From assembly GCA_009391195.1 (NCBI GenBank), contig VEXB01000004.1:6665-70664 (forward strand): DNA of 64,000 nucleotides, given 5' to 3'. The position numbers and the translations under genes are program-made. A model generated the notes under the pieces. That model ran no database searches. It was given only the letters and a program-made list of their open reading frames with translations, and was not told where the DNA came from. This stretch comes from SAR202 cluster bacterium AC-647-P02_OGT_505m (GTDB lineage Bacteria > Chloroflexota > Dehalococcoidia > Lucifugimonadales > UBA826). Shown here in pieces: positions 3,144 to 25,791 of this stretch (the first letter of the stretch is position 1; each line of letters starts with the position of its first letter).

Positions 3144-4043
3144 CTAGCAGCCTCTTGTTGCTAGCTGTTCAGACTCGGGCATGGTGCGAATATCTAGTCC
3201 AGGCATTGCATCTCCTAGTCCTTTTGAAACCTCCGCTAGCATGTGGGGATCGTTGAAATGTGTGGTGGCTTTCACAATGGCATCGGCCATTATGTCAGGA
3301 CGTTCAGACTTAAATATTCCTGAGCCAACGAATACTCCATCAACACCTATCTGCATCATCAAGGCAGCATCCGCAGGTGTTGAAATTCCTCCTGCAGCAA
3401 AGTTTACGACTGGAAGCTCGCCACTTTCATGTATGCCTTTTACTAATTCGTAAGGCGCCTTTAAATCCCTTGCTGTAGCCATTAACTCATCCGCTTCCAT
3501 GCTTTTAATGTGATTTATTTGGCCGAGTACTTTCCTAGCATGTCTTACTGCTTCAACGATGTTTCCGGAACCGGCCTCTCCTTTAGTCCTTATCATCGCG
3601 GCCCCTTCACCTATTCTCCGTAGGGCTTCTCCGAGGTCTCTGGCTCCACATACAAAAGGAACTTTAAAGTCATCTTTACTTATGTGGTTGTTTTCGTCTG
3701 CAGGGGTTAACACCTCTGACTCGTCAACGTAGTCAACTCCTAATGCTTCAAGTACCTGGGCCTCTACAAAATGTCCTATTCGTGCCTTGGCCATGACGGG
3801 TATCGTGACTGCCTCAATGATCTCGGCAATCATTTTAGGGTCTGACATTCTCGCGACACCACCCATCTTTCTTATGTCAGAGGGCACTCTCTCCAATGCC
3901 ATTACGGCCACTGCTCCCGCGTCTTCCGCGATTTTTGCTTGGTCGGGAGTGACAACGTCCATAATGACCCCCCCTTTTAGCATCTGTGCTAAGCCGGACT
4001 TTACTGTCCATGTACCTGTATCTGGTTTAGTTTCTATAGCCAT
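3144..4043 (-). CDS. pdxS: Pyridoxal 5'-phosphate synthase lyase subunit
   Basis: [28 protein letters not shown]; ATG at 4043 follows a GGAGG RBS. Confidence 0.97.
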
Positions 4044-4153
4044 GTGGTTCCTCCGCATCAGAATTTATCTGGGAATGTACTTTCGAAATTATACCTGTTT
4101 ATATGTCAGTCCCTCAATCAAGGACAGCTTTGGGCAAATATTAGGTGAGTCTG

Positions 4154-5179
4154 TTAATGAAATCCTTTTGCTGCAACGTACCTTGCCATGTCGATGGTTC
4201 TCAAACTATATCCCCATTCATTATCGTACCAGCCAACAACTTTCACCATGTTGGTTCCCAGAGTGATGGTTGAAAGGCCATCAATAACGCAACTGAATTT
4301 ATTCTTTCTATAGTCGGAGCTTACTAGAGGTTCAAGAGTAAAGTCTAAAATTCCATTGAGACTCCCCTCTGATGCATTTATATATGCTTGGTTAATGACG
4401 TCTGGGGTTATGCTGGATTCAAGTGTAGCGACTACGTCAGTTACAGAAACGGTTGCAGTGGGGACCCTGAAAGCCATTCCATGGACTTTACCCTCAAGGG
4501 CTGGAATGACCTGCCCAACTGCCTTAGCAGCTCCGGTAGTAGTCGGGATTATATTGGTACCTGCCGCTCTTGCTCTTCTCATATCCTTATGTCGTTTGTC
4601 TAAAACTTGCTGATCGTTTGTATAGGAATGAATCGTGGTCATCATACCGCTGATAATGCCGAATTGATCTTCAAGGACTTTCATTAGAGGTGCAACACAG
4701 TTGGTGGTACAAGATGCGTTAGAGAGTATGGAATGAGATACGGGATCATAATCTGACTCGTTGACCCCCATCACCACGGTAACATCCTCTCCTTTGGCTG
4801 GTGCTGAAATTATTACCTTTTTTGCACCAGCATCAATATGTTGCCTGGCCTTTTCGGCATCTGTAAATTTCCCAGTGCACTCCAATACTATGTCCACGTC
4901 CAATCTGTCCCATGGAATATCTATAGGGTTTGGGCTTGACACACAGTTGATTTCCATCTCATCAACAACAAATTTATCGCTAAAAGAGGAGACGGTTCCG
5001 TCATATACTCCGTAGGTACTGTCGTACTTAAACATATGGGCATTGGTTTCTGGATCTGCAAAACTATTTACCGCAACTACCTCCAAATCTGGGTAATTAC
5101 CGTCAGCAATTCCTCGCAGGATGAGTCTACCTATTCTTCCAAATCCATTAATTCCTAGACGCGTCTTGCTACTTGTCAT
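4154..5179 (-). CDS. gap: Type I glyceraldehyde-3-phosphate dehydrogenase
   Basis: GINGFGRIGR, ASCTTNC, WYDNEWGYS. Confidence 0.96.
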   Translation of the reverse strand: MTSSKTRLGINGFGRIGRLILRGIADGNYPDLEVVAVNSFADPETNAHMFKYDSTYGVYDGTVSSFSDKFVVDEMEINCVSSPNPIDIPWDRLDVDIVLECTGKFTDAEKARQHIDAGAKKVIISAPAKGEDVTVVMGVNESDYDPVSHSILSNASCTTNCVAPLMKVLEDQFGIISGMMTTIHSYTNDQQVLDKRHKDMRRARAAGTNIIPTTTGAAKAVGQVIPALEGKVHGMAFRVPTATVSVTDVVATLESSITPDVINQAYINASEGSLNGILDFTLEPLVSSDYRKNKFSCVIDGLSTITLGTNMVKVVGWYDNEWGYSLRTIDMARYVAAKGFH

Positions 5180-5228
5180 TATTTTTGTCTACTTTCCTTT
5201 TAGTTCCTTTGATAAAAACATTGGAGGT

Positions 5229-6521
5229 TCAACCTAAGTATTTCTTGTAAATGTCTATGCCGGCATATATTGCTTCACTTCCGAGTTCTTCTTCAATTCT
5301 GAGCAACTGATTGTACTTTGCAGTTCTTTCACCTCTTGCAGGTGCCCCGGTTTTGATTTGCCCGACATTCGTACCCACAGAGAGGTCTGCTATCACGGAA
5401 TCCTCAGTTTCTCCTGATCTGTGACTCATCACCATACCCCATCCGGCTGATCTAGCAATTTCGATGGCCGTCAGTGTCTCACTTAGTGTTCCTATTTGAT
5501 TCGGCTTTACAAGTACAGCGTTACCACACTTTTGTTTTACACCTTTAGAAATGCGTCTCGGATTCGTTGTTAATAAGTCGTCTCCAACTAGTTGTACAGA
5601 GGAACCTATAGAGGCAGTCATTTCCCGCCAATCATCCCATTCGTCCTCTGAAAGACCATCCTCTATGCTGACAATGGGATATTGATTTACCCAACTTTTG
5701 TATATATTAGACAATTCTTTTCCTGTGACGGTCCTGTTTTCACGTTGAAGTGAGTAATTGGAAGTTTCCTCGTCGAAGAGTTCCGCAGCGGCTGTGTCCA
5801 ATGCTATAAAAAATTGTTTACCAGGTTCGTAGTTTGCTTTCTCTATTGCGTCCATTATTAAATCTATAGCGGCTTGGTTTGAGGGAAGAGAAGGTGCAAA
5901 TCCACCTTCGTCTCCAACAGTTGTTTGCATTCGGTTTTTTTTCAATATGTCCAGCAGTGAGTAGTAGACTTCGCAACCAGCTCTCATTGCTTCAGTAAAA
6001 CTTTCAAATCCTGCGGGCACCACCATGAATTCTTGAACGTCGGTAGAATTTTCTGCGTGGCGCCCTCCGTTAATGATGTTCAACATAGGAACTGGGAGAA
6101 TATATTTTCCCGTATTATTGATGTGTTGATAAAGAGGAGTTTTACTACTCAGAGCCGCAGCTTTGGCAGTGGCAAGGGATACTGCGAGAGTGGAGTTGGC
6201 TCCTACATTACTTTTATTTTCTGTACCGTCAATTTCCACAATTTTTTTATCTATTTCTTCTTGACTCGAGGCATCCATCCCTTTAACTGCTGGAAATATC
6301 AAGGAATTTATGTTTTCAACAGCTGAAAGCACGCCCTTACCCCTAAACCGGGTTGGGTCTCCGTCTCTAAGTTCATGGGCTTCATATATTCCCGTACTTG
6401 CTCCAGATGGGGCAGCTGATCTACCAACTGATCCATCTGACAATCTTACGTCAGCTTCGACCGTTGGGTTACCTCTTGAATCCAAAATTTCCCTGGCCCT
6501 TATCTCTTGTATGTATGTCAT
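5229..6521 (-). CDS. eno: Enolase
   Basis: DSRGNPTVE, GDEGGFAP, SHRSGETED, KYNQLLRIEE. Confidence 0.98.
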   Translation of the reverse strand: MTYIQEIRAREILDSRGNPTVEADVRLSDGSVGRSAAPSGASTGIYEAHELRDGDPTRFRGKGVLSAVENINSLIFPAVKGMDASSQEEIDKKIVEIDGTENKSNVGANSTLAVSLATAKAAALSSKTPLYQHINNTGKYILPVPMLNIINGGRHAENSTDVQEFMVVPAGFESFTEAMRAGCEVYYSLLDILKKNRMQTTVGDEGGFAPSLPSNQAAIDLIMDAIEKANYEPGKQFFIALDTAAAELFDEETSNYSLQRENRTVTGKELSNIYKSWVNQYPIVSIEDGLSEDEWDDWREMTASIGSSVQLVGDDLLTTNPRRISKGVKQKCGNAVLVKPNQIGTLSETLTAIEIARSAGWGMVMSHRSGETEDSVIADLSVGTNVGQIKTGAPARGERTAKYNQLLRIEEELGSEAIYAGIDIYKKYLG

Positions 6522-7009
6522 CGATTCTCACATTTATTTAGTCTTTTGTTAGCTAGTAGTAATGCCGTTTCCACTGCCTGTGATGGAGTGTTACACAAAT
6601 GTAGGGAATTATCTTCACTACCTTCTCTATTAAAACTCCAAGTGTTCAGGCCAACAACTGGGATTTCATCTGATAGAGCATGACCGATCTCTGAAAGTGT
6701 GCCATAGGCGCCTCCAATTGCTATGACGGCGAGGCCCGATCTCACTACTATTAAATTTCGGGCATGTCCTAGGCCTGTACATATTGGGGTATCTATCCAG
6801 GGGTTAGCTTCATCTGTATTGAGTCCAGGTAAAATTCCGATTGTACTTCCACCTGCATTACTGGCACCTTTGCATACCGCTTCCATAACACCTCCCATAC
6901 CTCCGCAAACCACGGTTGCACCTGATTCTGCAAGTAGTTTTCCGACTTCCTCGGCTAGTGAGTAATTCTTGTGCGACGCGTTGCTTTCACCGATGATTGA
7001 TATGAGCAA
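6518..7009 (-). CDS. LOG-like Rossmann-fold protein (TIGR00725 type)
   Basis: CGGMGGVMEA, GILPG, GLGHARN, GGAYGTLSE. Confidence 0.85.
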   Translation of the reverse strand: MLISIIGESNASHKNYSLAEEVGKLLAESGATVVCGGMGGVMEAVCKGASNAGGSTIGILPGLNTDEANPWIDTPICTGLGHARNLIVVRSGLAVIAIGGAYGTLSEIGHALSDEIPVVGLNTWSFNREGSEDNSLHLCNTPSQAVETALLLANKRLNKCENR

Positions 7010-7132
7010 TTTTAACCAGAACTTTGGAAATTAAATCGGACGAGATTATAAGATTGTAAATATTGCAAAACTGAGTACACCGGCGAATCAAAGGCTTGGT
7101 ATTTCAGTGGATTATATACAGGGTGTAAATAT

Positions 7133-7957
7133 ATGGAAACTATACTAATCACTGGAGCTTCTTCAGGTATCGGCCGACTTTCAGCGATTCATCTTGCAGA
7201 GAAAGGTCATCAGGTAGTTATAGCTGCTAGAAATATGGATCGATTAGAAGAGACGGTGCATCAGGTGCCTAGCGTGGCTCACAACATTCATCCCTATATG
7301 ATGGACGTAAGTGATTCTAATAGCGTCAATAACACGGCGAATCTGATATTAGAAGACTGGGGGCATATTGATGTTCTTGTGAATAATGCGGGTTATGGAT
7401 TGAGAGGACCCTTGGAATTATTGGAGGCACAAGAAATTCAGGAACAGTTTCAGACAAACGTTTTTGGGTTGATGGAATTAACAAGGTTATTTATTCCGGA
7501 AATGAGAAAACGCTGTAGAGGTAAAATCATCAATATCAGTTCAGTTGTAGGTAGAATGCCCCTCCCATTCAATGGGGCTTATTCAGCAAGCAAATTTGCT
7601 CTTGAAGGGTTGTCTGAGAACCTGCGATTAGAGCTTGCCCCTTTCGGTATATCCGTATCAATAATAGAACCAGGTTATTTTGATACTGCCTTTGTTACCA
7701 ATCAAACAAAAGGTATTCATTCAGAGGAGACTGAGTCTCCTTATAAGTCTTATCAGGATAAGTATCTACATCGGCAAAATACTTTTGGCCGGCCGGCCAA
7801 AGCAAACAAAGTTGCCGTTACTATTGGTAACGTGATTGCATCTAAATCACCCAAATTGAGATATTTGGTTGGGGTCGATGCCCATTATGCAATGTTTTTA
7901 AAAGCTATTATCCCAGACCGGTTATTCAACTATATTCTAGGGAAAATATTGATGTAG
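7133..7957 (+). CDS. Short-chain dehydrogenase/reductase
   Basis: TGASSGIG, NNAG, YSASK. Confidence 0.92.
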   Translation: METILITGASSGIGRLSAIHLAEKGHQVVIAARNMDRLEETVHQVPSVAHNIHPYMMDVSDSNSVNNTANLILEDWGHIDVLVNNAGYGLRGPLELLEAQEIQEQFQTNVFGLMELTRLFIPEMRKRCRGKIINISSVVGRMPLPFNGAYSASKFALEGLSENLRLELAPFGISVSIIEPGYFDTAFVTNQTKGIHSEETESPYKSYQDKYLHRQNTFGRPAKANKVAVTIGNVIASKSPKLRYLVGVDAHYAMFLKAIIPDRLFNYILGKILM

Positions 7958-7958
7958 G

Positions 7959-7996
7959 AGAATGTAAGGACGTTGGAGATATAGTCCTTACATTCT
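7959..7996. terminator. Hairpin between convergent SDR and mdh (probable bidirectional terminator)
   Basis: 13-bp perfect inverted repeat AGAATGTAAGGAC / GTCCTTACATTCT. Confidence 0.7.
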
Positions 7997-8003
7997 ACTA
8001 AGA

Positions 8004-8936
8004 CTATTCAGCCTGAGCCATAACATCTATTAGTTCTTGAACAGCTTCTGCGGATCGTTTCAATTCACTATGCTCTTCTTCGTTGAGTTTAAGCTCCACA
8101 ATTTCCTCGGCTCCACCAGATCCTAGTTTCACGGGAACTCCGACATATAAATTGTTTATTCCGTAATGGCCTTGCAGATACGCTGTACATGGGAGTATTT
8201 CTTTTTTATCAAAAAGTATTGCTTCCACCATCTGTACAATTGATGCGGAGGGCGCATAGTATGCGCTACCGGTTTTGAGCAAGTTGACTATTTCTGCACC
8301 TCCATCACGTGCTCTTTGTACTATCTCTTCGAGTCTTTCAGGCTCAATTAATTGACTAACCGGAGTTCCTGCTACGTTGGTACTCTCTACTACTGGCACC
8401 ATAGTGTCTCCGTGGCCACCTAGGACGTAAGCAGAGACAGAATCCACAGACACGTTAAGTTCTTGTGCAAGAAAACTTCTATACCGGGCGGTGTCCAATA
8501 TTCCTGCCATGCCTACAACCCTTTCAGAAGGGAACCCACTGACTTTGAGTGCCTGCTGCGCCATTGCGTCCAGAGGATTAGTAACTATGACGTGAACGCT
8601 ATCGGGAGAATACTTAGAGGTCTCCGAAACGACGCTTGATACAATTTTCTGATTGGTTAGAAGTAAATCATCCCTACTCATTCCCGGTTTTCTTGCTATC
8701 CCTGATGTTACTACTACGACATCCGAATCAGCAGTTTCTTCGTATGTATTCGTCCCCAATATTTGAGCATCGGAACCTAGAATTGGGCCTGATTCAAGCA
8801 TGTCGAGAGCTTTTCCCTGAGGCAATCCATCCACTATGTCAACTAACACAACATCTGCATAGCCGCGATCAAAAATTCTTTGGGCTGCTGTCGCTCCCAC
8901 ATTCCCAGCACCAACAATTGTTACCTTGCTTCTCAT
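8004..8936 (-). CDS. mdh: Malate dehydrogenase (LDH-like)
   Basis: [16 protein letters not shown] (Arg specificity residue), NPLD, GGHGD. Confidence 0.95.
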
Positions 8937-9057
8937 ATTTCCCCTTTCCTTGGATTAACTTATTACTGAAACGTTGTTATTCAATAACTATCAATAACAT
9001 ACACTAGCGGATAGGTAAGAGTGAATACTGGGAATGCATGATTACTGATTAGAGCTG

Positions 9058-10914
9058 CTAGGACAGAACAATTAGTACATCACCCTTTACAACAGTTGCA
9101 CCTTCTGTGACCTGCAGTTTCTGGACGGTGCCTGTGGCGGGTGACGGTAGAGTATTTTCCATTTTCATCGCTTCAAGAATTGCGACAGGTTCTCCAACTT
9201 TAACTTCGTCCCCTTCCTCAACTAAATACCTCAACAAAATTCCGGGCATGGGGGACACAAGAGATTCTCCATTGTTTGTAACTGAATCTTTAGAACTTGG
9301 CTCCTTGAAATCTGGTGCAATTTTCTCCTGGTTAATTCCTTCCGACTGATTAACCATAGGGACTATTTGACCAGGGGGCACATCTGCTGGATCAACTTCA
9401 ACTTTGAAATATTCATTTTCTACAAAAACATTAAAAGTTTTTGTCAATTGACTTTTTGGAGGGTATTGATCTCTAGGTTGGGGAATTATGGCTACAGGTT
9501 CAGAATCAAATCCGGGTTTCATTTCTTCAGGCATCTGGTCGAGTCCGTGTTTGATCCTGAGGAATTTTAAACCAGTGGTTGGGTAGAGGGCATATATTAA
9601 TACATCATCTATATTATCTGTGATGTCAGCAATCTCCGACTTTGCTTTTTCCATTTCAGGGTCTAATAGGTTTGCGGGGCGCTCATGAATAACAGGGCTC
9701 CCTTTCTTATAATCCTTCAGAACCGTTTTAGCTATTTCAGGATCAATAACTGAAGGAGGCCTACCATACATTCCGTAAACATATTCTTTGACCTGTCCAG
9801 AGATCATCTCGTACTTTCCGAATAGTACATTGCTAACGGACTGAGAGCCGATCATTTGGCTCATTGGAGTTACTAATGGCGGATATCCAAGGTCTTTTCT
9901 TGTTCTGGGGATTTCTTCCAGAACTTCATCCAATTTGTCTATGGCGTCTGCTTCCCTAAGCTGTGACAGTAAATTGCTAGCCATCCCACCGGGTATCTGG
10001 TGGCTTAGGACCTTTGCATCGATAACAGCTGCCTTTGGGCTTTCCAAATGGTGTCGGTACTTCGGAAGGATCGATTCGAGTTGATCTCCCAATTGAAGAA
10101 GTTGTTCTAAGTCCAGCTTAGGGTCATATGGAGTGCCGCTGAGGGTAACAACCAGAGGTTCGACTGCAGGTTGAGAGGTACGTAAGGCCAAGGGAGCAAG
10201 AGATGTATCAACCACGTCTATACCAGCTTCTATAGCCTTTAAGACACTCATTGACGCCATTCCGCTCGTATAGTGTGAGTGTAACTGAAGCGGTACGGAG
10301 ATTTTGCTTTTGAGGCCCTTTACAAGATTATAGGCATCATATGGCGCTAGTAGTCCTGCCATATCTTTGATGCATATACTGTCGGCTCCCATGGATTCAA
10401 ACAACTCAGCTTTGGAAAGATAGTAGTCCAAGCTGTAGATAGGGCCACCCATTTTTCCGGATTCAGTGACTGAGTAGCAAAGGGTCATCTGAAGATGTTT
10501 TCCAGTCTTCTTAACAGACTCAGCAGCTTTGCTGAGATTCCATTCGTCATTCAAAGCATCAAACACCCTGAAAACGTCAATGCCATTTTCTGATGATCTC
10601 TCCACGAACTCTTGGACCACATCGTCAGCGTAAGTTCTGTAACCGACTAAAGATTGGCCTCTTAGAAGCATGGAAAGTGGTGTGTTGGGCATCAACTCTT
10701 TGAATTTTCTGAGGCGATCCCAGGGATCTTCGCCAAGAAAACGAGTTGCTGTGTCAAAAGTTGCCCCTCCCCAAACCTCCATGGAATGAAAGCCTATTTG
10801 GTCCATCGCAGCGGCCATTGGCTCCATATCTTCCATTCTTAGTCGGGTGGCAAGCAAGCTTTGATGTCCGTCTCTGAAAGTAGTGTCTGTTATTTTTATG
10901 GGGCTTTGAGTCAT
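9058..10914 (-). CDS. Pyruvate/oxaloacetate carboxyltransferase fused to a biotin carrier (PycB/OadA/transcarboxylase 5S+1.3S-like)
   Basis: RDGHQSL, EVWGGATFD, IKDMAG, HSH, PGGM; C-terminal EAMKM biotinylation site. Confidence 0.92.
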   Translation of the reverse strand: MTQSPIKITDTTFRDGHQSLLATRLRMEDMEPMAAAMDQIGFHSMEVWGGATFDTATRFLGEDPWDRLRKFKELMPNTPLSMLLRGQSLVGYRTYADDVVQEFVERSSENGIDVFRVFDALNDEWNLSKAAESVKKTGKHLQMTLCYSVTESGKMGGPIYSLDYYLSKAELFESMGADSICIKDMAGLLAPYDAYNLVKGLKSKISVPLQLHSHYTSGMASMSVLKAIEAGIDVVDTSLAPLALRTSQPAVEPLVVTLSGTPYDPKLDLEQLLQLGDQLESILPKYRHHLESPKAAVIDAKVLSHQIPGGMASNLLSQLREADAIDKLDEVLEEIPRTRKDLGYPPLVTPMSQMIGSQSVSNVLFGKYEMISGQVKEYVYGMYGRPPSVIDPEIAKTVLKDYKKGSPVIHERPANLLDPEMEKAKSEIADITDNIDDVLIYALYPTTGLKFLRIKHGLDQMPEEMKPGFDSEPVAIIPQPRDQYPPKSQLTKTFNVFVENEYFKVEVDPADVPPGQIVPMVNQSEGINQEKIAPDFKEPSSKDSVTNNGESLVSPMPGILLRYLVEEGDEVKVGEPVAILEAMKMENTLPSPATGTVQKLQVTEGATVVKGDVLIVLS

Positions 10915-10926
10915 TTCATGATCCAG

Positions 10927-11160
10927 TTAAAAGTTATATGTTGATGTCCTGTTCCAGCCCATCGACTTTCTTGTGTATGCCAGAGGTAAAGACCCCTTTA
11001 GGGATACTTTCCAAGGGGGGAGAGAAAGAGAAGTTTTAAATTGTGGTTTGGTTTCGTCGCCCAGGTATGCATTTACGGCAGCGACTATGGCGGCGATTTG
11101 AGCTTGTTTTGGTTTGCGATCTGAGCTTCGTGTAGACGGTGGTGTTCTTGAATGTCTCAA
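10927..11160 (-). CDS. Small carboxylase accessory subunit (acyl-CoA carboxylase epsilon / OadG-MmdD-like)
   Basis: [12 protein letters not shown] helix followed by a Trp-containing tail; TTGA overlap with the upstream carboxyltransferase stop. Confidence 0.6.
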
Positions 11161-12719
11161 AGAGGTATGCTCCCGTGCTTTTTGGGGGGTAGAGTTTCTC
11201 TTTTGTTTTCTAACATCTGTAGAGCTCTTATTATTTTTCTCCTAGTTTTGGAAGGCTCTATAACGTCATCGATGTATCCTCTACTAGCAGCGATATATGG
11301 ATTCATGAGGCTATTCTCATATTCATTGACTAATTCTTTTCGTTTTTCCTCAGCATCTTCGGAATCCTTGAGAATGGACCTGTGGATAATGTTAACTGCA
11401 CCCTCCGCACCCATTACTGCTACCTGCCCCGTTGGCCATGAGTAATTCACGTCACCTCGCAGACTTTTGCTACTCATTACGATGTATGCGCCTCCGTATG
11501 CTTTACGGGTGAGAACGCTTATCTTCGGCACGGTAGCTTCCGCATAAGCAAATATTAATTTTGCACCGTGTCTTATTATTCCGCCATGTTCTTGGGATGT
11601 GCCAGGTAGGAATCCTGGCACATCTATAAAGGTTATGATTGGTATGTTAAAAGCGTCACAAAATCTGACAAAGCGTGCGGCTTTTACGGAAGCATCTATA
11701 TCCAAAACTCCGGCAAATTGATTCGGCTGCTGAGCCACTATTCCAACAGTGTTTCCATTCATTCTTGAAAACCCTACAAGAACGTTTCCTGCAAAATTCT
11801 GATGAACTTGCATAAAGTTTTTTGAGTCCACCACGGCTTCAATTACATCTAGCATGTTGTAAGGGTGGTTGGAATTATCTGGAATAATGGTATTAAGTGA
11901 CTCATCATCCCTTTCAGGATCGTCTGTGGAGACTATGGGAAGGGGGTTTTCCATGTTGTTTTGAGGTAGGAAACTAAGAAGTTCCCTTACTCGTAAGATG
12001 CAATTGTTTTCATTGTCATCCAGAAAATGGGCAACTCCACTTTTCGCTGTATGAGCTTCCGCTCCTCCGAGTTGTTCGTGAGAGACTTCTTCACCAGTAA
12101 CCGACTTTATGACATCAGGGCCAGTTATATACATCTGGCCTACGCCTTTTACCATAAATATGAAATCTGTTAGGGCAGGGGAGTAGGTTGCGCCACCAGC
12201 CGCAGGACCGAGCATGACTGATATTTGAGGAATGACCCCTGAAGCTAGTACGTTTCGGTTGAATATGTCGCCGTACCCCGCGAGGCTGTCAATTCCTTCC
12301 TGGATTCGTGCTCCCCCTGAGTCGATAAGACCTACGATGGGTGCCCCGTTTTCCATGGCCATATCCATGACTTTACATATCTTATTGGCAACTACTTCAG
12401 AGAGGGAGCCCCCAAAAACCGTGAAATCTTGAGAGTATACGAATGTAAGTCTTCCGTTTACCTTACCGTACCCGGTGACAACAGCGTCACCAAGGTATTG
12501 TTGCTTGTCGAGACCGAAATTCGTGGAGCGATGGATTACAAAAGGATCAAGCTCTTCGAAGGACCCTGGGTCAAGGAGAAGATCTAAGCGTTCTCTTGCC
12601 GTAAGCTTTCCGCGGCTGTGTTGTGCTTCAATCCTTCGAGTCCCTCCTCCTTGAAGGCTTTTTTCTCGGAGTTGCAACAGTTCATCTCTTTTCTGTTCAG
12701 TTGGTCCTTGAGATGTCAT
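11157..12719 (-). CDS. Acyl-CoA (propionyl/methylmalonyl-CoA) carboxyltransferase subunit (PccB/MmdA/12S-like)
   Basis: [42 protein letters not shown]; ATG at 12719 has a GGAG RBS. Confidence 0.94.
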
Positions 12720-14393: not shown

Positions 14394-14897
14394 TTATCCA
14401 ACAGTAACTTCATACATAGACCGCAGCACGCTTGAAAGTAGATAAACTATTAAACCTAAAACGATAACCAGGTTATAACCAGCTAGTAGTCGCAATATGT
14501 TTCGCTTAGGGTTTCTGGGAAAATTTTGGATTGATCTGTAATTCCATGCTGTGTGCCTTTTGGCCCTTATTAGATAAAACATGACAGTGACCAGTGATAG
14601 CTTAATTCCAAGTACTATTAGATAGTTCACCCCTAATGTCCCCGGAGTTAGTCGCTCAAATGTCATCACAGCCCCAGTTGCTAGCAAGACGAACAGACAT
14701 GTGTCTACTAATGTTCGGAACTCTGCGGATACATTTTTGTTGATTCTAGAGTCACTGACACCATTTTTTTTCACAGCGGGTCTCAGTACTACAAGCCAGA
14801 ATATGCCTCCCCCAATCCAGGCGGAAGCAGATACAAAATGTGCCCATCTCACCGCTATATGAAACCACGATGCCAAGTCCAAATTAAGGTTTCTCAA
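14394..14897 (-). CDS. CopD-like four-helix membrane protein
   Basis: RWAHFVSASAWIGG motif and four hydrophobic segments. Confidence 0.6.
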   Translation of the reverse strand: MRNLNLDLASWFHIAVRWAHFVSASAWIGGGIFWLVVLRPAVKKNGVSDSRINKNVSAEFRTLVDTCLFVLLATGAVMTFERLTPGTLGVNYLIVLGIKLSLVTVMFYLIRAKRHTAWNYRSIQNFPRNPKRNILRLLAGYNLVIVLGLIVYLLSSVLRSMYEVTVG

Positions 14898-15420
14898 TCT
14901 TTAGTAGAGTATCTATAATTTTCCTCAATTGTTCTGCTTTTATTTCTCCCTGCCAACTCTTGTATATGTTTCTTTCTGAGTCAATGAATACTGTGGTTGG
15001 GAATCCAGTTACACCATAGTCAACCGCTATGGAACCGTCATTGTCAGGGCCCACAGCGTAGCTTATAGCTGACTCCGTTACAAAATCACTTCCATCAGAC
15101 ACAGAATCTAGCCCAATCAGTTGAATACCGACTATGTCCACTTTATCTCTGTATAGTCGATAAACCGAATCTATGTCTGGCATTTCTTTGACACAGGGCG
15201 GACATGAAGGGAACCAAAAGTTTAGGATCAGTGGTTTCTTAGAGTTGTCGTCGAGGTTAAATGTAGTCCCTTCTTTGTAAAATTTGGTTTCGTATGTGGT
15301 GATTGAAAAATAGGGAGCTTTTGGATTTACAAGTTGAGACTGGCAAGCAACACAGAGGAAAAAAAGAGTGGTTGCAAGTAGCAAACCATATGTATGGAAG
15401 TAATTAAAAATACGCATCAT
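14884..15420 (-). CDS. TlpA/ResA-family thiol-disulfide oxidoreductase, probable lipoprotein
   Basis: LNFWFPSCPPCVKEMP, GFPTTVFID; N-terminal hydrophobic stretch with VAC lipobox. Confidence 0.88.
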   Translation of the reverse strand: MMRIFNYFHTYGLLLATTLFFLCVACQSQLVNPKAPYFSITTYETKFYKEGTTFNLDDNSKKPLILNFWFPSCPPCVKEMPDIDSVYRLYRDKVDIVGIQLIGLDSVSDGSDFVTESAISYAVGPDNDGSIAVDYGVTGFPTTVFIDSERNIYKSWQGEIKAEQLRKIIDTLLKIEKP

Positions 15421-18975: not shown

Positions 18976-19629
18976 TTATCTTTCGTTGACGTTTCCCCAG
19001 GAATCCCAATAAGTTACTTCCTCTACCGCCTGTCTTTTTGGCTGTGACCATTTACCCTTATCTGGATAACCTAGTGGTATCAGAGCCATCGTGGTGGCAT
19101 CATCAGGTATACCGAGTAGATTCTTTACATCTTCTTCATGCCCCGCATACAGTGTAGTCAAAGTGGACCCAATGCCATATGCCCTTGCAGCCAGCATTAA
19201 ATTTTGAACTGCACCATAAATTGAGGAACCTGTTCTAGGATTCCTCGAATCACTCGTATTACGAAGCGTCCCAATAATCCAGATAGGTGCGTCTTGTATG
19301 TGATTCGCCAGATATTCAGCGCTCAAATAATTCCTCGGGCCTAAAGTGTCTGAAGAATCGGATCGATCCATTATGGCCTGACGACGCTTTCCATAAGCGA
19401 GATGCCAACCTTCTCGATACCATTCAGATATCTGATTTTTCTTCTCCTGATCCTTTAATATTATCCAGTTCCATCCTTGGCTATTTCCGCCCGAAGGAGC
19501 TCTGATAGCGGCATCTAAAAGTTCCCAAATTATCTCGTTCGGGATCTCCTTTTTGGAAAGATATCTCCGTGCTGGAGTCGAGTGCAGTGCCTCAAAGACA
19601 TTAAGTGAGGCAATAGTTTGATCAACCAT
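18976..19629 (-). CDS. Nitroreductase-family flavoprotein
   Basis: RAPSGGNSQGW, QNLMLAARAYGIG, IPLGYP. Confidence 0.9.
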   Translation of the reverse strand: MVDQTIASLNVFEALHSTPARRYLSKKEIPNEIIWELLDAAIRAPSGGNSQGWNWIILKDQEKKNQISEWYREGWHLAYGKRRQAIMDRSDSSDTLGPRNYLSAEYLANHIQDAPIWIIGTLRNTSDSRNPRTGSSIYGAVQNLMLAARAYGIGSTLTTLYAGHEEDVKNLLGIPDDATTMALIPLGYPDKGKWSQPKRQAVEEVTYWDSWGNVNER

Positions 19630-19670: not shown

Positions 19671-20720
19671 TCAGAGAGATAATCTTGGCTTTACCTTTGT
19701 GCAGAATAGTCGTAATGATTCCTCTACTATAGATTCTGGTAGGTCTTCGCCCGCATTGAATTCCGCTGCGATACTGTCTAGGCCAAGTTCTTCAATCATT
19801 CTACTTAGTTGATCTGCAACTTTCTCTGGGTCTCCAACCGCAACTTTTTCCCCCTGAATAGTTTCCCAGCGAATTTCTGCAAGCCGACTACTCCTCTCAG
19901 ATCTTTCCGTTCCTGAATCCGCGGTTTCTTTTCCCACGGATGACCCAAGTTGTGAGCCTAATCGATGAAATTGCTTCATGAAACTGGTTTCAGAATTTTC
20001 TAACGCTTTTTTTGTGGACTCTGCCACATGAACTGGTACCCGTAATGACACGCTTCCATTGCTATGTCCATTTCTGGCTAATGCTTCACGATAAGTTTTT
20101 ACCTGAGCTGATACATCGGCAAGAGTTAGGCCTCTAACTCCAACGAAAATGGGCATGCCCATTTCACCTAGTAGAGGAAACGTTTCGGAGGTTGTGGCAG
20201 CCACTCTCATCGGGGGATGCGGCTTTTGAAATGGCTTCGGCGTAAGGCAAACATCTTCATATTGGTGAAATTTGCCGGAATATGAAAACCTATCTTTCGT
20301 GAAGGCCTCCTGAATTATTTCGAGAGATTCAAAGAATCTTTCTCTGCTCTCTCCGTAAGAAATGTTGTAACCCTCGTATGCTCCAGGCAACCCACTCCTA
20401 CCGATTCCGAATTGAAATCTTCCTTCACTTAGATGGTCCAGAGTAGCCACTTCCTCCGCTATTCTAAGGGGATTACCAAGTGGGAGTACCTGTACGGCAG
20501 TACCAATATTGATCCTCTCTGTTTTACCAGAAATGGCGGCAGCTACTATTAGTGGGGCGGACAAAACGGATCTTGAAGGATTGAAGTGGCTTTCGGCTAA
20601 CCAAACCGTATCCAGACCAAGCTTTTCTGCTATATCTATGTGATTAAATGCTTCCTGAAAGTCGGCATTTTGACTGCGACCCTCTCTTGCATGGAATTCC
20701 ATAAAGGAACCGAATTCCAT
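19671..20720 (-). CDS. Luciferase-like (LLM) flavin-dependent monooxygenase
   Basis: WLAESHF, PLRIAEEVATLDHLSEGR, PKPFQKPHPP. Confidence 0.92.
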   Translation of the reverse strand: MEFGSFMEFHAREGRSQNADFQEAFNHIDIAEKLGLDTVWLAESHFNPSRSVLSAPLIVAAAISGKTERINIGTAVQVLPLGNPLRIAEEVATLDHLSEGRFQFGIGRSGLPGAYEGYNISYGESRERFFESLEIIQEAFTKDRFSYSGKFHQYEDVCLTPKPFQKPHPPMRVAATTSETFPLLGEMGMPIFVGVRGLTLADVSAQVKTYREALARNGHSNGSVSLRVPVHVAESTKKALENSETSFMKQFHRLGSQLGSSVGKETADSGTERSERSSRLAEIRWETIQGEKVAVGDPEKVADQLSRMIEELGLDSIAAEFNAGEDLPESIVEESLRLFCTKVKPRLSL

Positions 20721-20965
20721 AATTCCCCCTTAGTTACTTTGTCGTGTAGTGCAAGAGAATAGGTTGCGTGCTCATTGACGTCAAGATCACAAGGCAAATT
20801 TGATCAAAGTCAGAGGTTCAACCGACAAGGGAATGGGCATTACTTTACAAAGTTGGGACAGGGCTGTTAATTCAGTGACTCTTCACTTTTAGTGCTAAAA
20901 TTTTCCCTTACGATGCCTGTATTAGACTAAGTACCAAATAGAAATATCAGCAGGAGTATGAGGGG

Positions 20966-22159
20966 ATGCCAAGACTAGAAGCGTTGAGCGAGGCACAGAG
21001 GAAAATGTTGTTGAATTGGCCTTGCCCAGACAACGACGACACCCCTTGGACTACTATGGGGAAGCCACTTTCAGAATCTAAAGTGGCGATGGTGACGACT
21101 TCCGGGATTCACCTAAGAAAGGATGCTCCTTTCAGGAGTTTGAAGGGTGGGGATACGTCGTATCGAATTATTCCCCGAGATTCTGACCCAGCCGATATTA
21201 TTCAAAGTCATACTAGCATTGGATTCGATAGAACCACCTCGTACAGGGATATCAACATATCTTTTCCTGTGGATCGACTGGAAGAATTAGTACAAAGTGG
21301 TTACATAGGAGAATTATCTAATAATTATTATTCTTATATGGGCGCGATTAACGATGTGACGGGTCTCATGGAAGACTCTGGCCCAGAAGTTGCGACTAAA
21401 TTATTATCTGAGGAGGTTGATGTAGTTCTACTTGTGCCTACTTGACCGGCCTGCTCAAACGCCGTGAGCGTGCTTGCTAGGGTTTATGAGGATATGGGGC
21501 TCGTAACAACTGGACTTGTTTTAATTGAAGAGCATGCAAAGAGGGTTAAGCCTCCTCGCATGCTGTCAGTTCCTTTTAATTTTGGGAATACTTTAGGAAG
21601 GCCGAATGATCCTGAATTCCAGCACGAGATTTTAAGGACAACTTTTGATTTATTGGATAGACAAGAGGGACCGGTACTGGAGAGTTTTTCCCCCGATATT
21701 GCGCCTGAATTATTTTCCCAGGGGTCTGGGGTAGCTAGAGAGGAATCCCCTGTAGTTTCTGATCCTGGTCAAGAGGTTGACTTAAGGAGACCTTTTTATG
21801 AGCGATGGGTTCAACAAAACCATGGGAGAACGGCAGTTGGTGTGAGTACAATCTCTCAAACAGATTTCAAATTGGTGATTAAGTTCCTAGAAGATTTTAC
21901 GGAGAATGAGGAGTCTGATACTCCTATCCGTCCCAATCAATTTAGCGTCGCCCACTTTATAAGATATTGCGTCGATGACCTTAAGGCATATTACTTTGAG
22001 TCGAAAATGTCTGAAGACCCAGAATTGTCCATCACTCAATTGCATGAGTGGCTTTGGGCTGAGACAGCATTGGGATCTTTAATTATGAGATTAGCCGAGA
22101 GAATGAGATCCGATGACAATAACGAGGTAAAAGCCGTAGCCTTTGGCATAGCTAGATAG
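20966..22159 (+). CDS. PrdB/GrdB-like selenoprotein (Sec160, UxxC) with C-terminal extension; single gene read through TGA 21443-21445
   Basis: The GrdB/PrdB-type N-part (KPLSESKVAMVTTSG, FPVDRLEEL, VDVVLLVPT) continues in frame after TGA as PACSNAVSVLAR...PPRMLSVPFNFGNTLG; a hairpin lies directly 3' of the TGA. Confidence 0.85.
21449..21473 (+). promoter_or_regulatory. Candidate bacterial SECIS element
   Basis: GCTCA (21453-57) pairs with TGAGC (21465-69) around the loop AACGCCG, extendable by a G-U pair and outer GC pairs, just downstream of the in-frame TGA. Confidence 0.5.
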
Positions 22160-22221: not shown

Positions 22222-22260
22222 CAAAAACTCCATGTTTAATTGTTAAACATGGAGTTTTTG
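22222..22260. terminator. Bidirectional intrinsic terminator
   Basis: 18-bp perfect inverted repeat CAAAAACTCCATGTTTAA / TTAAACATGGAGTTTTTG between convergent genes. Confidence 0.8.
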
Positions 22261-22268
22261 ATAGGTGG

Positions 22269-23231
22269 CTAAATTCTTGCGAATTTTTGTAATCCTTTTG
22301 TGGTTCCTACCTCTGATATGTAGATATCTCCCTGGGTGTCTATCCAGATACCGTGCGGGAAACCTCTAAAGTTTCCAGCGTCTTCGCCTCGGCTTCCCCA
22401 GCGTCCAACAACCTCTCCTTCCAAGGTAGTTATTAAAACAGAACCTACTCCCTCCGCAATGTGCATCATTTCGTCGTCGTCTATAACAGCGTCATTAGGA
22501 CCTCTAACATCTAGCCACTGATTTATAAAATTGCCATCAGCATCAAAAATTTGGCATCGATTATTTTCTCGATCCATAATGTAAACGTTGTTATTTGAAT
22601 CCACAGTTACATCATGAGGTAGATTAAATTCTCCTGGTCCCGTTCCGGGATTTCCAGTTGCATTTGGGTTGTCTTCCTTCTTATACAGATTCCAGGCTTC
22701 CTGGTTAAATACTGGTTCCCCTTCTCCCCATGAGCATATGAGGTCACCATTATTGGTAAATTTGTGAACTCTGTTTTGCCAGTATCCGTCTGAGACAAAT
22801 ATTTCACCGCTAGCTGACTGAACGGCGCGTGTAGGGGACCTGAAAGGCTCTCCCTGTGGTCCGAGTTCGTCCTTAACACCTATTGACATCAACAATTCTC
22901 CGTCAGAGTTAAAGCGTGTCACGGTGTGATTCCCCGAGTCGGCATGGAATATTTCGTCCTCAGGACTAATCCATAATCCATGAGGTGTAGCAAAGTATTC
23001 TTCACCCCATTGGGTTAGGAAGGTCCCATCTTTGTCAAAGACAAGAATGACTCCAGCATTTGGGTTGTCTCCTTCAGTCGTGTATAGCCCTGCATAGGAT
23101 GTACGAACAGCGACGTAAACATTTCCATTTGACGTGGTTGCTATATCGGATGCAACTCCGTCAATAGGCCACTGACCCCAGCCTTCGACAAGTTCGTATT
23201 GATAGTCACCGGTTCCAAATGTGTTTGCCAT
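22269..23231 (-). CDS. NHL-repeat beta-propeller, PAL (peptidyl-alpha-hydroxyglycine lyase)-like
   Basis: PHGL, SDGY, LPHDV, DRENNR, PHGI motifs; no signal peptide. Confidence 0.85.
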   Translation of the reverse strand: MANTFGTGDYQYELVEGWGQWPIDGVASDIATTSNGNVYVAVRTSYAGLYTTEGDNPNAGVILVFDKDGTFLTQWGEEYFATPHGLWISPEDEIFHADSGNHTVTRFNSDGELLMSIGVKDELGPQGEPFRSPTRAVQSASGEIFVSDGYWQNRVHKFTNNGDLICSWGEGEPVFNQEAWNLYKKEDNPNATGNPGTGPGEFNLPHDVTVDSNNNVYIMDRENNRCQIFDADGNFINQWLDVRGPNDAVIDDDEMMHIAEGVGSVLITTLEGEVVGRWGSRGEDAGNFRGFPHGIWIDTQGDIYISEVGTTKGLQKFARI

Positions 23232-23267
23232 ATGTATATCTCCATTTATATTGTGCATTCATTTCAG

Positions 23268-24620: not shown

Positions 24621-25724
24621 TCATCCAGTGAGATCATTCAATCTCGGCATTACCTTTTCAGCGAGAAGTCTCATAGAGGTTTCGTAATTTTCGCTATCCT
24701 CTGAATGATCAAACGTGAGCCAGAGCAGATGTCCAAACCCTCCAACTGCTGAGTATAGGTTGCGGATTTTCTCCGTTACGGTGTCTGGTGACCCAACTAT
24801 CCATAAATTGTCCAGCATATACTCAATGGTGACATCTTCGTTAGGCATAGATTCGTCATGTTTCATATATTCAACGAAAGGATAAGCTCCGAAAGAAAAC
24901 AGTGGATGTAGATATTCTCTCCAGGCCCTTCCAAGCATGCCATTTAAAGCGCCTTCTCTAGCTTCTTCATCAGTTTCGGCCACCCATATGTCTCTTACAA
25001 TTCTCCATTCACTTCTGGAAGGTGGGGTTCTGCCCTTAGATTTAGCCCCCTCCTCAACAGCATCCCAGTGACTTGCAACGTATACCTCGTTTAGGCCCAA
25101 GCTCATGGGGATATAACCTCTTTCCCCAACAAGTTTTAGGGTGTCGGAGCCGGGGCTTGCTCCAGCAACTCCTATTGGCGGGTGAGGTTTCTGGAACGGG
25201 GTTATATGCGTCCTCAGGTTGGCGAATGCATAGTCTTCTGGGTCTGGTATATTGACCTGCCAAAATTTGCCTTCATATTTAAATGGACCATCCACGTGCT
25301 CCCATAGGTTCAGGATGATATCCAGAGACTCTCTGGTTCGCTCCCTATGCTCACCATTTTCCATATCTATCCCGAATAATTCATGGTCAGATTGTAGGCC
25401 TCCCGAACCTATTCCAAACATATATCGTCCTTGGGCTAGATGATCTAGATAGGCGACTCTCGATGCCAACTCTACTGGATGATGAAAGGGAAGTAGATGG
25501 GCACCAGTTCCAAGCTTTATGTTTTTGGTCTGCATTAATGCTTGCGCGATAAGGATGTCCGGGGATGGTACTGGTTCCCAAGGCGCAGTAAAGTGTTCCC
25601 CTATCCATGCTTCCTCAAGCGCATAATTATCTGCAAGCTTGAGGCAATGAAGGTCCCAGTTTTGGGCGTCTATCGGGGCCCTCTCAGGGGGATGTGACGG
25701 CATCAGAAAAAGTCCTAGTTTCAT
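24621..25724 (-). CDS. Luciferase-like (LLM) flavin-dependent monooxygenase
   Basis: MPSHPP, WIGEHF, LDHLAQGR, PFQKPHPP. Confidence 0.92.
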   Translation of the reverse strand: MKLGLFLMPSHPPERAPIDAQNWDLHCLKLADNYALEEAWIGEHFTAPWEPVPSPDILIAQALMQTKNIKLGTGAHLLPFHHPVELASRVAYLDHLAQGRYMFGIGSGGLQSDHELFGIDMENGEHRERTRESLDIILNLWEHVDGPFKYEGKFWQVNIPDPEDYAFANLRTHITPFQKPHPPIGVAGASPGSDTLKLVGERGYIPMSLGLNEVYVASHWDAVEEGAKSKGRTPPSRSEWRIVRDIWVAETDEEAREGALNGMLGRAWREYLHPLFSFGAYPFVEYMKHDESMPNEDVTIEYMLDNLWIVGSPDTVTEKIRNLYSAVGGFGHLLWLTFDHSEDSENYETSMRLLAEKVMPRLNDLTG

Positions 25725-25791
25725 ATTACTCCACCTCACTCGTGATGTTTTTGCATGTCGTCACGCTTTTCAAAGTTGAACCTTGTTGGGA

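Follow-up and report, generated by a model that had tools for sequence, protein, structure and literature searches.

When two short open reading frames (ORFs) share a frame and are parted by a TGA, do they represent two small genes or one gene for a selenoprotein? This question is raised by a 64,000-nucleotide (nt) stretch from a metagenome-assembled genome (MAG) of a SAR202 bacterium; we refer to the whole stretch as the window and use its positions as coordinates. Translation table 11 gives two separate ORFs on the + strand, 20966-21445 (159 amino acids [aa], closed by a TGA) and 21464-22159 (231 aa), which share a common frame. The only in-frame TGA within 20966-22159 is the one at 21443-45, and decoding it as selenocysteine (Sec, U) yields a protein of 397 aa with the motif U160-P-A-C163. 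The sequence at this site reads ...VVLLVPT-U-PACSNAVSVLAR..., with PAC-SNAVSVLAR directly after U160. An earlier note on this DNA had joined the two ORFs into such a protein, and our translation agrees with it, down to the motifs GRTAVG, RYCVDDLKAYY, and WLWAET that the note had picked out in the C-terminal tail. We conclude with high confidence that 20966-22159 is one gene that encodes a PrdB-like selenoprotein of 397 aa, with UGA 21443-45 decoded as Sec.

One line of evidence for this conclusion is that the codon is conserved. When one genome per species was scanned, 554 stretches were confirmed as encoding relatives of this protein, the best 80 of which we examined in detail. TGA stands at the aligned column, within a U-P-x-C motif, in all 80 loci. 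The gene belongs to a widespread, usually stand-alone family of Dehalococcoidia/SAR202, Entotheonella/Tectimicrobiota, Methylomirabilota/Rokubacteria, Terriglobia, and Binatia; by their MAG labels, the 80 loci come from these groups (two of the labels being Dehalococcoidia/Chloroflexota and Terriglobia/Acidobacteria), with a single locus each labeled Gammaproteobacteria and Micromonosporaceae. A second scan, seeded with cysteine (Cys) forms, returned 76 metagenome loci. Seventy-two of these reach the Sec site and four do not; the codon there is TGA in 64/72 and TGC or TGT in 8/72. Five uninterrupted homologs (P0005-P0009; 393 to 399 aa) carry C-P-x-C at the Sec position and the same tail. In the comparison with the protein database, which covers the 120 best matches, 115 are C-terminal halves of 218 to 236 aa, that is, split Sec forms, and these are called "hypothetical protein" where they are named at all. 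The expectation that annotation would split the gene into two hypotheticals is thereby borne out. Gene callers cut the gene in two, and the family is consequently misannotated in a systematic way in SAR202 and other uncultured lineages.

The frame is conserved on both sides of the codon. In an alignment of 44 sequences (alignment A2, which comprises the window sequence, 38 of the 80 loci, and the five Cys forms), the residues E175, G178, P196, P197, and R198, all 3′ of the TGA, are invariant, as are many residues 5′ of it (listed below), and the PrdB profile TIGR04483 aligns through the TGA without interruption. Two independent DNA runs from different studies (X2 and X10) cover the site, with no difference listed at 21443-45. 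The earlier note had proposed an alignment of homologs across the TGA and a search for Cys orthologs as checks of its reading of the gene as that of a PrdB/GrdB-like selenoprotein with a UxxC Sec motif, and both comparisons agree with that reading. Elsewhere in the window, TGA is an ordinary stop codon: it ends 14 of the 46 ORFs of at least 200 aa (TAA, 16; TAG, 16). The frame at this locus is therefore open by local recoding and not by an altered genetic code, and we rejected a global recoding of UGA. Together, these results indicate that UGA 21443-45 almost certainly encodes selenocysteine.

Within the family, the codon is followed by a conserved hairpin that resembles a selenocysteine insertion sequence (SECIS). 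We scored its pairing in 80 sequences, namely, the window and 79 loci (L028 was excluded, as it contains an N). Standard pairs fill 94.2% of 608 cells, compared with 15 to 57% when the 3′ partner is slid by one to three columns. Covariation is seen at three pairs of the hairpin; pair 19-27 is AU in 44 sequences, GC in 28, GU in 4, and unpaired in none, and pair 16-30 is CG in 64 and AU in 7. Among the metagenome loci, 53 of 64 TGA forms retain all six core pairs (mean, 5.8/6), but none of the eight Cys forms does (mean, about 3.6/6), although the peptide encoded around the hairpin is near-identical between TGA and Cys metagenome forms.

The host MAG (1.37 Mb in 57 contigs, 55.7% complete, 43.8% G+C) contains selD (374.9 bits; contig C2:93137-94198 [-], locus L003) with one in-frame TGA of its own in the context SCAG-U-ASK, a position which we take to be that of the catalytic Cys/Sec of SelD; as predicted from its gene, the selenophosphate synthetase of the host is itself a selenoprotein. 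Scanning the host for single in-frame TGAs that adjoin a Cys codon revealed another putative selenoprotein gene, which belongs to the UGSC family (186 aa; ...SGD-U-GSC...; NF041046, 133.4 bits with a cutoff of 125; contig C47:1904-2467 [-], locus L189:305-865). Among the lineage genomes counted, the host included, selB is above its cutoff in 18 of 21, and it is present in all three congeners. In the five close relatives, selA is above its cutoff in four, and the tRNA for selenocysteine (tRNA-Sec) is above its gathering score in four, of which three reach at least 65 bits. The PrdB-like gene itself is found in 14 of the 21 lineage genomes, with 18 matches that each carry one in-frame TGA and none of which exceeds the PrdB cutoff.

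To which family does the protein belong? Its residues 17-159 match positions 205-347 of PF07355 (GRDB) at 43.9 bits, above the gathering threshold of 22, in line with the likeness to PrdB/GrdB seen in the earlier note. Residues 26-230 align with positions 18-218 of the 238 positions of TIGR04483 (PrdB; E, 1.7e-43); the score of 148.8 bits lies below the equivalog cutoff of 300. U160-P-A-C163 falls within this aligned region, which places the UxxC motif at the homologous site. For the subfamily model TIGR01918, the match of 42.4 bits stays below the cutoff of 65.45 and covers profile positions 203-380 only, without the N-terminal half of GrdB. We also aligned the family with three other proteins: two GrdBs from relatives, both containing Sec and one having the canonical UxxCxxC, and one short PrdB-like protein (a 326-aa frame). 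G86, F/Y87, P101, S123, G126, U160, E175, G178, R198, and G207 are common to canonical GrdB, the short PrdB-like protein, and the window protein. Of the 44 residues invariant in the family, the compared GrdB and PrdB-like proteins share only 13 to 23, and none of those shared lies in the tail.

A shorter, second subfamily of PrdB-like selenoproteins was also seen, at loci L102 (G025:C1, ORF 1288-2256) and L103 (G023). Its members are 322 aa long counted from the first start codon, have U-P-V-C and an N-terminal extension, lack a helical tail, and reach 186 and 178 bits with the PrdB model, above the window family.

An AlphaFold2 model of the whole chain, computed on alignment A2, has a mean predicted local distance difference test (pLDDT) score of 90.4 and a predicted template modeling (pTM) score of 0.90. 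It consists of an α/β core that extends to about residue 240, followed by a tail of six predicted helices (267-284, 298-312, 328-350, 356-366, 368-381, and 386-395). At the predicted Sec site, a strand (153-157) leads through U160 into a helix (161-176); such a strand-helix turn is the usual setting of a redox-active CxxC or UxxC pair. Core residues invariant in all 44 sequences include H49, R51, D53, R67, Q80, S81, S84, G86, F87, D88, D95, N97, R104, E107, P158, U160, P161, and C163, and those in the tail include E270, T289, G292, D338, E345, W362, T367, and G394.

The tail is present in all 44 sequences, the Cys forms included, and is thus a family-wide trait; on this alignment, it is a hallmark of the family and not, as the earlier note's description of a fused C-terminal domain might suggest, a peculiarity of the window gene. 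The description of the tail as uncharacterized stands. No Pfam or NCBIfam model matches it. When the tail was searched by itself against the ESM Atlas, all clusters retrieved were unnamed ("hypothetical protein"), and the best score, 0.90, is within the chance range. The structure prediction that the note had called for gives a six-helix bundle at 267-395. As weak evidence, none of 2114 candidates is a longer fused form of the C-terminal ORF.

D-Proline reductase and the glycine reductase-type (Grd) systems work with pyruvoyl partners, and the absence of these from the window had been noted earlier. We found no PF09338 protein (PrdA/GrdE) in the window. PF09338 was likewise not detected in the assembled part (55.7%) of the host genome, the place where the earlier note had suggested looking for prdA and grdE, nor in four of the five large genomes of relatives that carry the gene; the fifth, from Entotheonella, has two copies about 240 and 480 kb from the gene. 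Neighbors resembling grdE or grdC/D were found at 0/80 genome loci (within 6 kb on either side) and 0/76 metagenome loci (within 1.5 kb).

What does adjoin the gene differs between clades. Our map of the neighbors of the 80 loci is rough, as the ORF caller placed wrong antisense ORFs in high-GC loci; with that limit, it lists penicillin amidase (16 loci), VOC/glyoxalase (15), a metallo-beta-lactamase-fold protein (15), an RF-1-domain protein (10), and an HI0933-like flavoprotein (8), and in some clades cobalamin genes and a fused electron transfer flavoprotein lie near the gene. No recurrent neighbor extends over the whole family, each being restricted to a sub-clade, and we therefore inferred no function from the context. 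The location of the gene among oxygenases, to which the earlier note had attached meaning, loses its weight for the same reason. Its view of the host as probably aerobic is upheld: the host encodes subunit I of a heme-copper oxidase (COX1; 529 bits) and hence can respire oxygen.

Two of these neighbors were followed locus by locus. The RF-1-domain protein (140 aa; PF00472; of the ArfB-like peptidyl-tRNA hydrolase type) is encoded on the same strand, about 0.9 to 1.9 kb upstream of the Sec codon, at 10 of the 80 loci (L054, L057, L059, L061, L062, L064, L066, L067, L070, and L084). As all of these belong to one sub-clade of Dehalococcoidia, the adjacency probably reflects synteny by descent. 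The penicillin amidase-family gene (PF01804; 631 bits in L023) occurs at 16 of the 80 loci in three arrangements; it is downstream in L019-L028, L050, and L051 and upstream in L021, L039, L052, L056, L089, and L063. No homolog of it was found in the assembled host genome.

SelB and tRNA-Sec are presumably recruited to the conserved hairpin, which begins about 10 nt 3′ of the UGA, and Sec is thereby inserted. We propose that the protein would then act alone as a selenol/thiol reductase: Sec160 would attack a bound small-molecule substrate, Cys163 would resolve the adduct to give a selenenyl-sulfide, and a thioredoxin-type dithiol system would reduce the selenenyl-sulfide again. This reductase mechanism is tentative, somewhat short of even odds. 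Lacking PrdA as its pyruvoyl partner, the protein would not be a D-proline reductase, and since such a partner is usually missing throughout the family, the label PrdB is probably misleading. In a bolder version, which we consider rather doubtful, the protein would be no subunit of a proline reductase but a self-contained selenoenzyme with an undescribed reaction, in which the helical tail takes over the role of the pyruvoyl partners by holding or capping the substrate. If true, this reaction would rank among the commonest selenium-dependent activities of marine and soil heterotrophs that respire oxygen (SAR202, Tectimicrobiota, Methylomirabilota, and Acidobacteriota).

Taken whole, as the identity of the gene together with the proposal for its mechanism, we assign this explanation a probability of roughly 0.8. 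Several observations count against it. The hairpin of the window itself forms six of eight pairs in the family register and is weaker than that of most relatives; a shifted 6-bp stem, 21452-57 with 21465-70, is the minimum-free-energy fold of the single sequence, and the folding energy is no better than that of shuffled sequences, of which 115 of 200 are equally or more stable (z, 0.27). Because the window hairpin is modest alone, the case for it rests on the family comparison, and the hairpin that had been seen earlier directly after the TGA holds up as present, conserved in the family, and specific to TGA forms but not as a strong structure in the window. Searches of the host MAG yielded neither selA nor selB nor tRNA-Sec, which at 55.7% completeness is weak evidence; we attribute the gaps to the incompleteness of the MAG. 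The search for selA, selB, selC, and selD suggested in the earlier note thus gave selD alone in the host and the other components in relatives. RNA-library contigs from two metatranscriptome libraries (X15 and X16) contain parts of both halves at a depth of 2 to 3, with the X15 contig stopping 19 nt beyond the TGA and the X16 contig beginning at 21453. In these two libraries, no contig crosses the TGA with 31 nt on both flanks, and a read-through product was not seen; metatranscriptome libraries can contain DNA as well, and these contigs are no basis for a claim of transcription or read-through. As to the mechanism, a sequence search of solved structures gave 0 matches at an E value of 1 or less, and a Foldseek search of the model against the PDB gave 0 at an E value of 0.001 or less (best E, 3.8e-2; TM score, at most 0.26). 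Finally, in the single-contig genome G021 (locus L188; C1:1974000-1992000, about 3759-11580), the gene is followed directly, on its own strand, by a grdC/D-like gene, grdE (PF09338, 261 bits), and a grdB that contains Sec. This is the sole such adjacency among the loci examined. The grdC/D-like gene is DUF5940/KAS-III-like, its reading as grdC/D-like being an interpretation, and the grdB has the Sec context TSA-U-GTSTRS with no Cys nearby. Judging from this locus, the family may be associated with Grd-type complexes in some lineages.

These points bear on three other explanations. That the TGA is a true stop, and the locus two small genes, a pseudogene, or an assembly error, would fit the two ORFs given by table-11 callers, the GTG start present at 21464, and the detection of only selD among the Sec-decoding genes of the host MAG. 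It is nonetheless extremely unlikely, given the presence of the in-frame TGA in each of the 80 loci, which span several phyla, the conservation of the frame to either side of it, the uninterrupted Cys forms and the profile alignment through the site, the restriction of the hairpin to TGA forms, the agreement of independent DNA runs, and the single confident AlphaFold2 model of the full chain. Also very unlikely, in our view, is a role as a genuine B-type subunit within a D-proline or glycine/betaine-type reductase complex, with PrdA/GrdE and the other partners encoded at other sites, such as in the unassembled 44% of the genome. The clear PrdB homology, the incompleteness of the host genome, the G021 arrangement, and the canonical grdB genes carried by the relatives G015, G021, and G004 speak for such a subunit; its scores, far under the cutoff for TIGR04483 and under that for TIGR01918, the lack of PF09338 in four of five large gene-carrying genomes and its distance from the gene in the fifth, the lack of grdE or grdC/D near the gene in the 80 genome and 76 metagenome loci, the tail of about 165 aa absent from the compared GrdB and short PrdB-like proteins, and the limited number of invariant residues in common with them all speak against it. 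A protein-thiol- or peroxide-directed antioxidant oxidoreductase, thioredoxin- or peroxiredoxin-like, would run the same UxxC cycle on another class of substrate. The modeled position of the UxxC at a strand-helix turn, as in thioredoxin-fold redox proteins, the oxygen-respiring host, and the variable, housekeeping-like gene context are compatible with this role, and most of the abundant selenoprotein families that the marine surveys describe are thiol oxidoreductase-like (PMC1088965, PMC2398784). We nevertheless judge it unlikely: the homology is to the substrate-specific B components of amino acid reductases and not to thioredoxin-fold families, the Foldseek search against the PDB found no thioredoxin or peroxiredoxin fold, and the invariant polar core residues H49, R51, D53, R67, Q80, S81, S84, D88, D95, N97, R104, and E107 suggest a pocket for a small molecule. 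The stand-alone selenol/thiol reductase is our best guess.

The features of the gene and its surroundings are collected in Table 1.

Table 1. Coordinates of the selenoprotein gene, its parts, and neighboring features in the window
Feature	Position	Strand	Basis or remark
Complete coding sequence, PrdB-like selenoprotein, 397 aa	20966..22159	+	ATG 20966, UGA 21443-45, stop TAG 22157-59
Likely Shine-Dalgarno sequence, AGGAG	20952..20956	+	9 nt 5′ of the ATG; inferred from sequence only
PrdB-like α/β core, residues 26-230	21041..21655	+	TIGR04483 and PF07355 matches
UGA, selenocysteine U160	21443..21445	+	Codon conservation; CPxC in Cys forms
TGC, Cys163, presumed resolving Cys of U-P-A-C	21452..21454	+	Invariant in the 44-sequence alignment
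SECIS-like hairpin	21453..21477	+	Alignment columns 11-35 from the T of TGA; family pairing
Family-specific C-terminal tail, residues 231-397	21656..22156	+	Six-helix bundle at 267-395
Hairpin of 18 pairs between convergent genes	22222..22260		Strand not assigned
Luciferase-like monooxygenase, divergent upstream neighbor	19671..20720	-	
NHL-repeat gene, convergent downstream neighbor	22269..23258		
Redoxin/AhpC-TSA protein	14884..15420	-	
Nitroreductase	18976..19629	-	
Luciferase-like monooxygenase	24621..25739	-	

The gene had been called monocistronic, with a divergent promoter region upstream and a terminator downstream. The divergent upstream gene is there, but a promoter scan of the region found no + strand site; its three - strand sites are not above shuffles. 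The 18-pair hairpin downstream matches the terminator pattern on the - strand only, that is, for the NHL-repeat gene, and on the + strand its T-run falls inside the stem. Symmetric A/T runs suggest that it is probably a bidirectional terminator that also serves the + strand. Within 6 kb of the gene there are genes for the redoxin, the nitroreductase, and the two luciferase-like monooxygenases in Table 1; we take them to be gene content typical of SAR202, and we saw no conserved link between them and the selenoprotein gene.

How does this gene relate to what has been described? In the Sargasso Sea survey, "Proline reductase PrdB" with a UxxC motif was the third most abundant known selenoprotein family (42 Sec forms, 1 Cys form) (Zhang, Fomenko & Gladyshev 2005, PMC1088965), and the GOS survey reported 235 PrdB selenoproteins in 38 samples (pfam07355, UxxC), along with 110 Cys forms (Zhang & Gladyshev 2008, PMC2398784). 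"Proline reductase" selenoproteins have also been listed for Anaeromyxobacter and Geobacter (PMC1794560), and the PrdB label is retained in reviews (PMC9312934, PMC13188914). As the surveys describe it, the survey family and that of the window have in common the Pfam07355-type domain, the UxxC motif, the occurrence in marine metagenomes, and a strong excess of Sec over Cys forms (here, 64 TGA to 8 Cys codons, and 115 split halves compared with 5 uninterrupted Cys forms). The passages of the two surveys that treat the family make no mention of a C-terminal tail, the absence of PrdA, or the taxa that carry it. We infer that the survey "PrdB" is exactly the subfamily of the window, equating the two by described features and not by sequence. 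The stretch itself occurs, at 0.90 or more of sampled words, in 14 DNA runs of marine or seawater origin that belong to 10 studies. Going by the survey passages, the gene is a further member of a known, uncharacterized selenoprotein family that has been in print since 2005, and the picture of a hidden orphan selenoprotein that the earlier note had drawn gives way to one of the most abundant marine selenoprotein families, described in 2005 and again in 2008. Members of this abundant family show a strong preference for Sec over Cys, and the question of their substrate is not a new one, as the family was already in print in 2005. Our literature searches on PrdB-like and GrdB-like homologs matched only work on rumen Synergistota, and those on SAR202 selenocysteine and on Chloroflexi selenoproteins or proline reductase returned nothing specific to the family.

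Among characterized systems, PrdB has a homologous α/β core, and its Sec stands in U-x-x-C at the same place. The PrdB profile has 238 positions, whereas the window protein has 397 aa with an additional helical tail of about 165 aa, and PrdB works with PrdA, which the window, the assembled host genome, and four of five large genomes of relatives lack. D-Proline reductase PrdB is an enzyme of Acetoanaerobium sticklandii and Clostridioides difficile (PMC13188914). Its hosts are Stickland fermenters, whereas the host of the window gene is an oxygen-respiring marine bacterium of the Dehalococcoidia. GrdB, GrdF, and GrdH (PF07355, TIGR01917/TIGR01918) share with the window protein the PF07355 match and the ten common residues, including Sec. 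In GrdB, an additional N-terminal half of some 200 aa is present and the C-terminal tail is lacking, the reverse of the window protein; the canonical GrdB of a same-family relative reads U-G-S-C-N-R-C, compared with U-P-A-C-S-N-A here, and grdB genes adjoin grdE and grdC/D, whereas those of the window family normally do not. The UGSC family (NF041046), as presented in PMC2398784, is another abundant, uncharacterized marine selenoprotein family with a UxxC motif, and the host genome encodes a member of it on C47. This protein differs from that of the window in its length of 186 aa, its family model, and its lack of a helical tail, yet its Sec region gives a weak match to a GrdB profile (TIGR01917; E, 3.3e-4), which hints at a distant link between the Sec modules of UGSC and GrdB/PrdB proteins.

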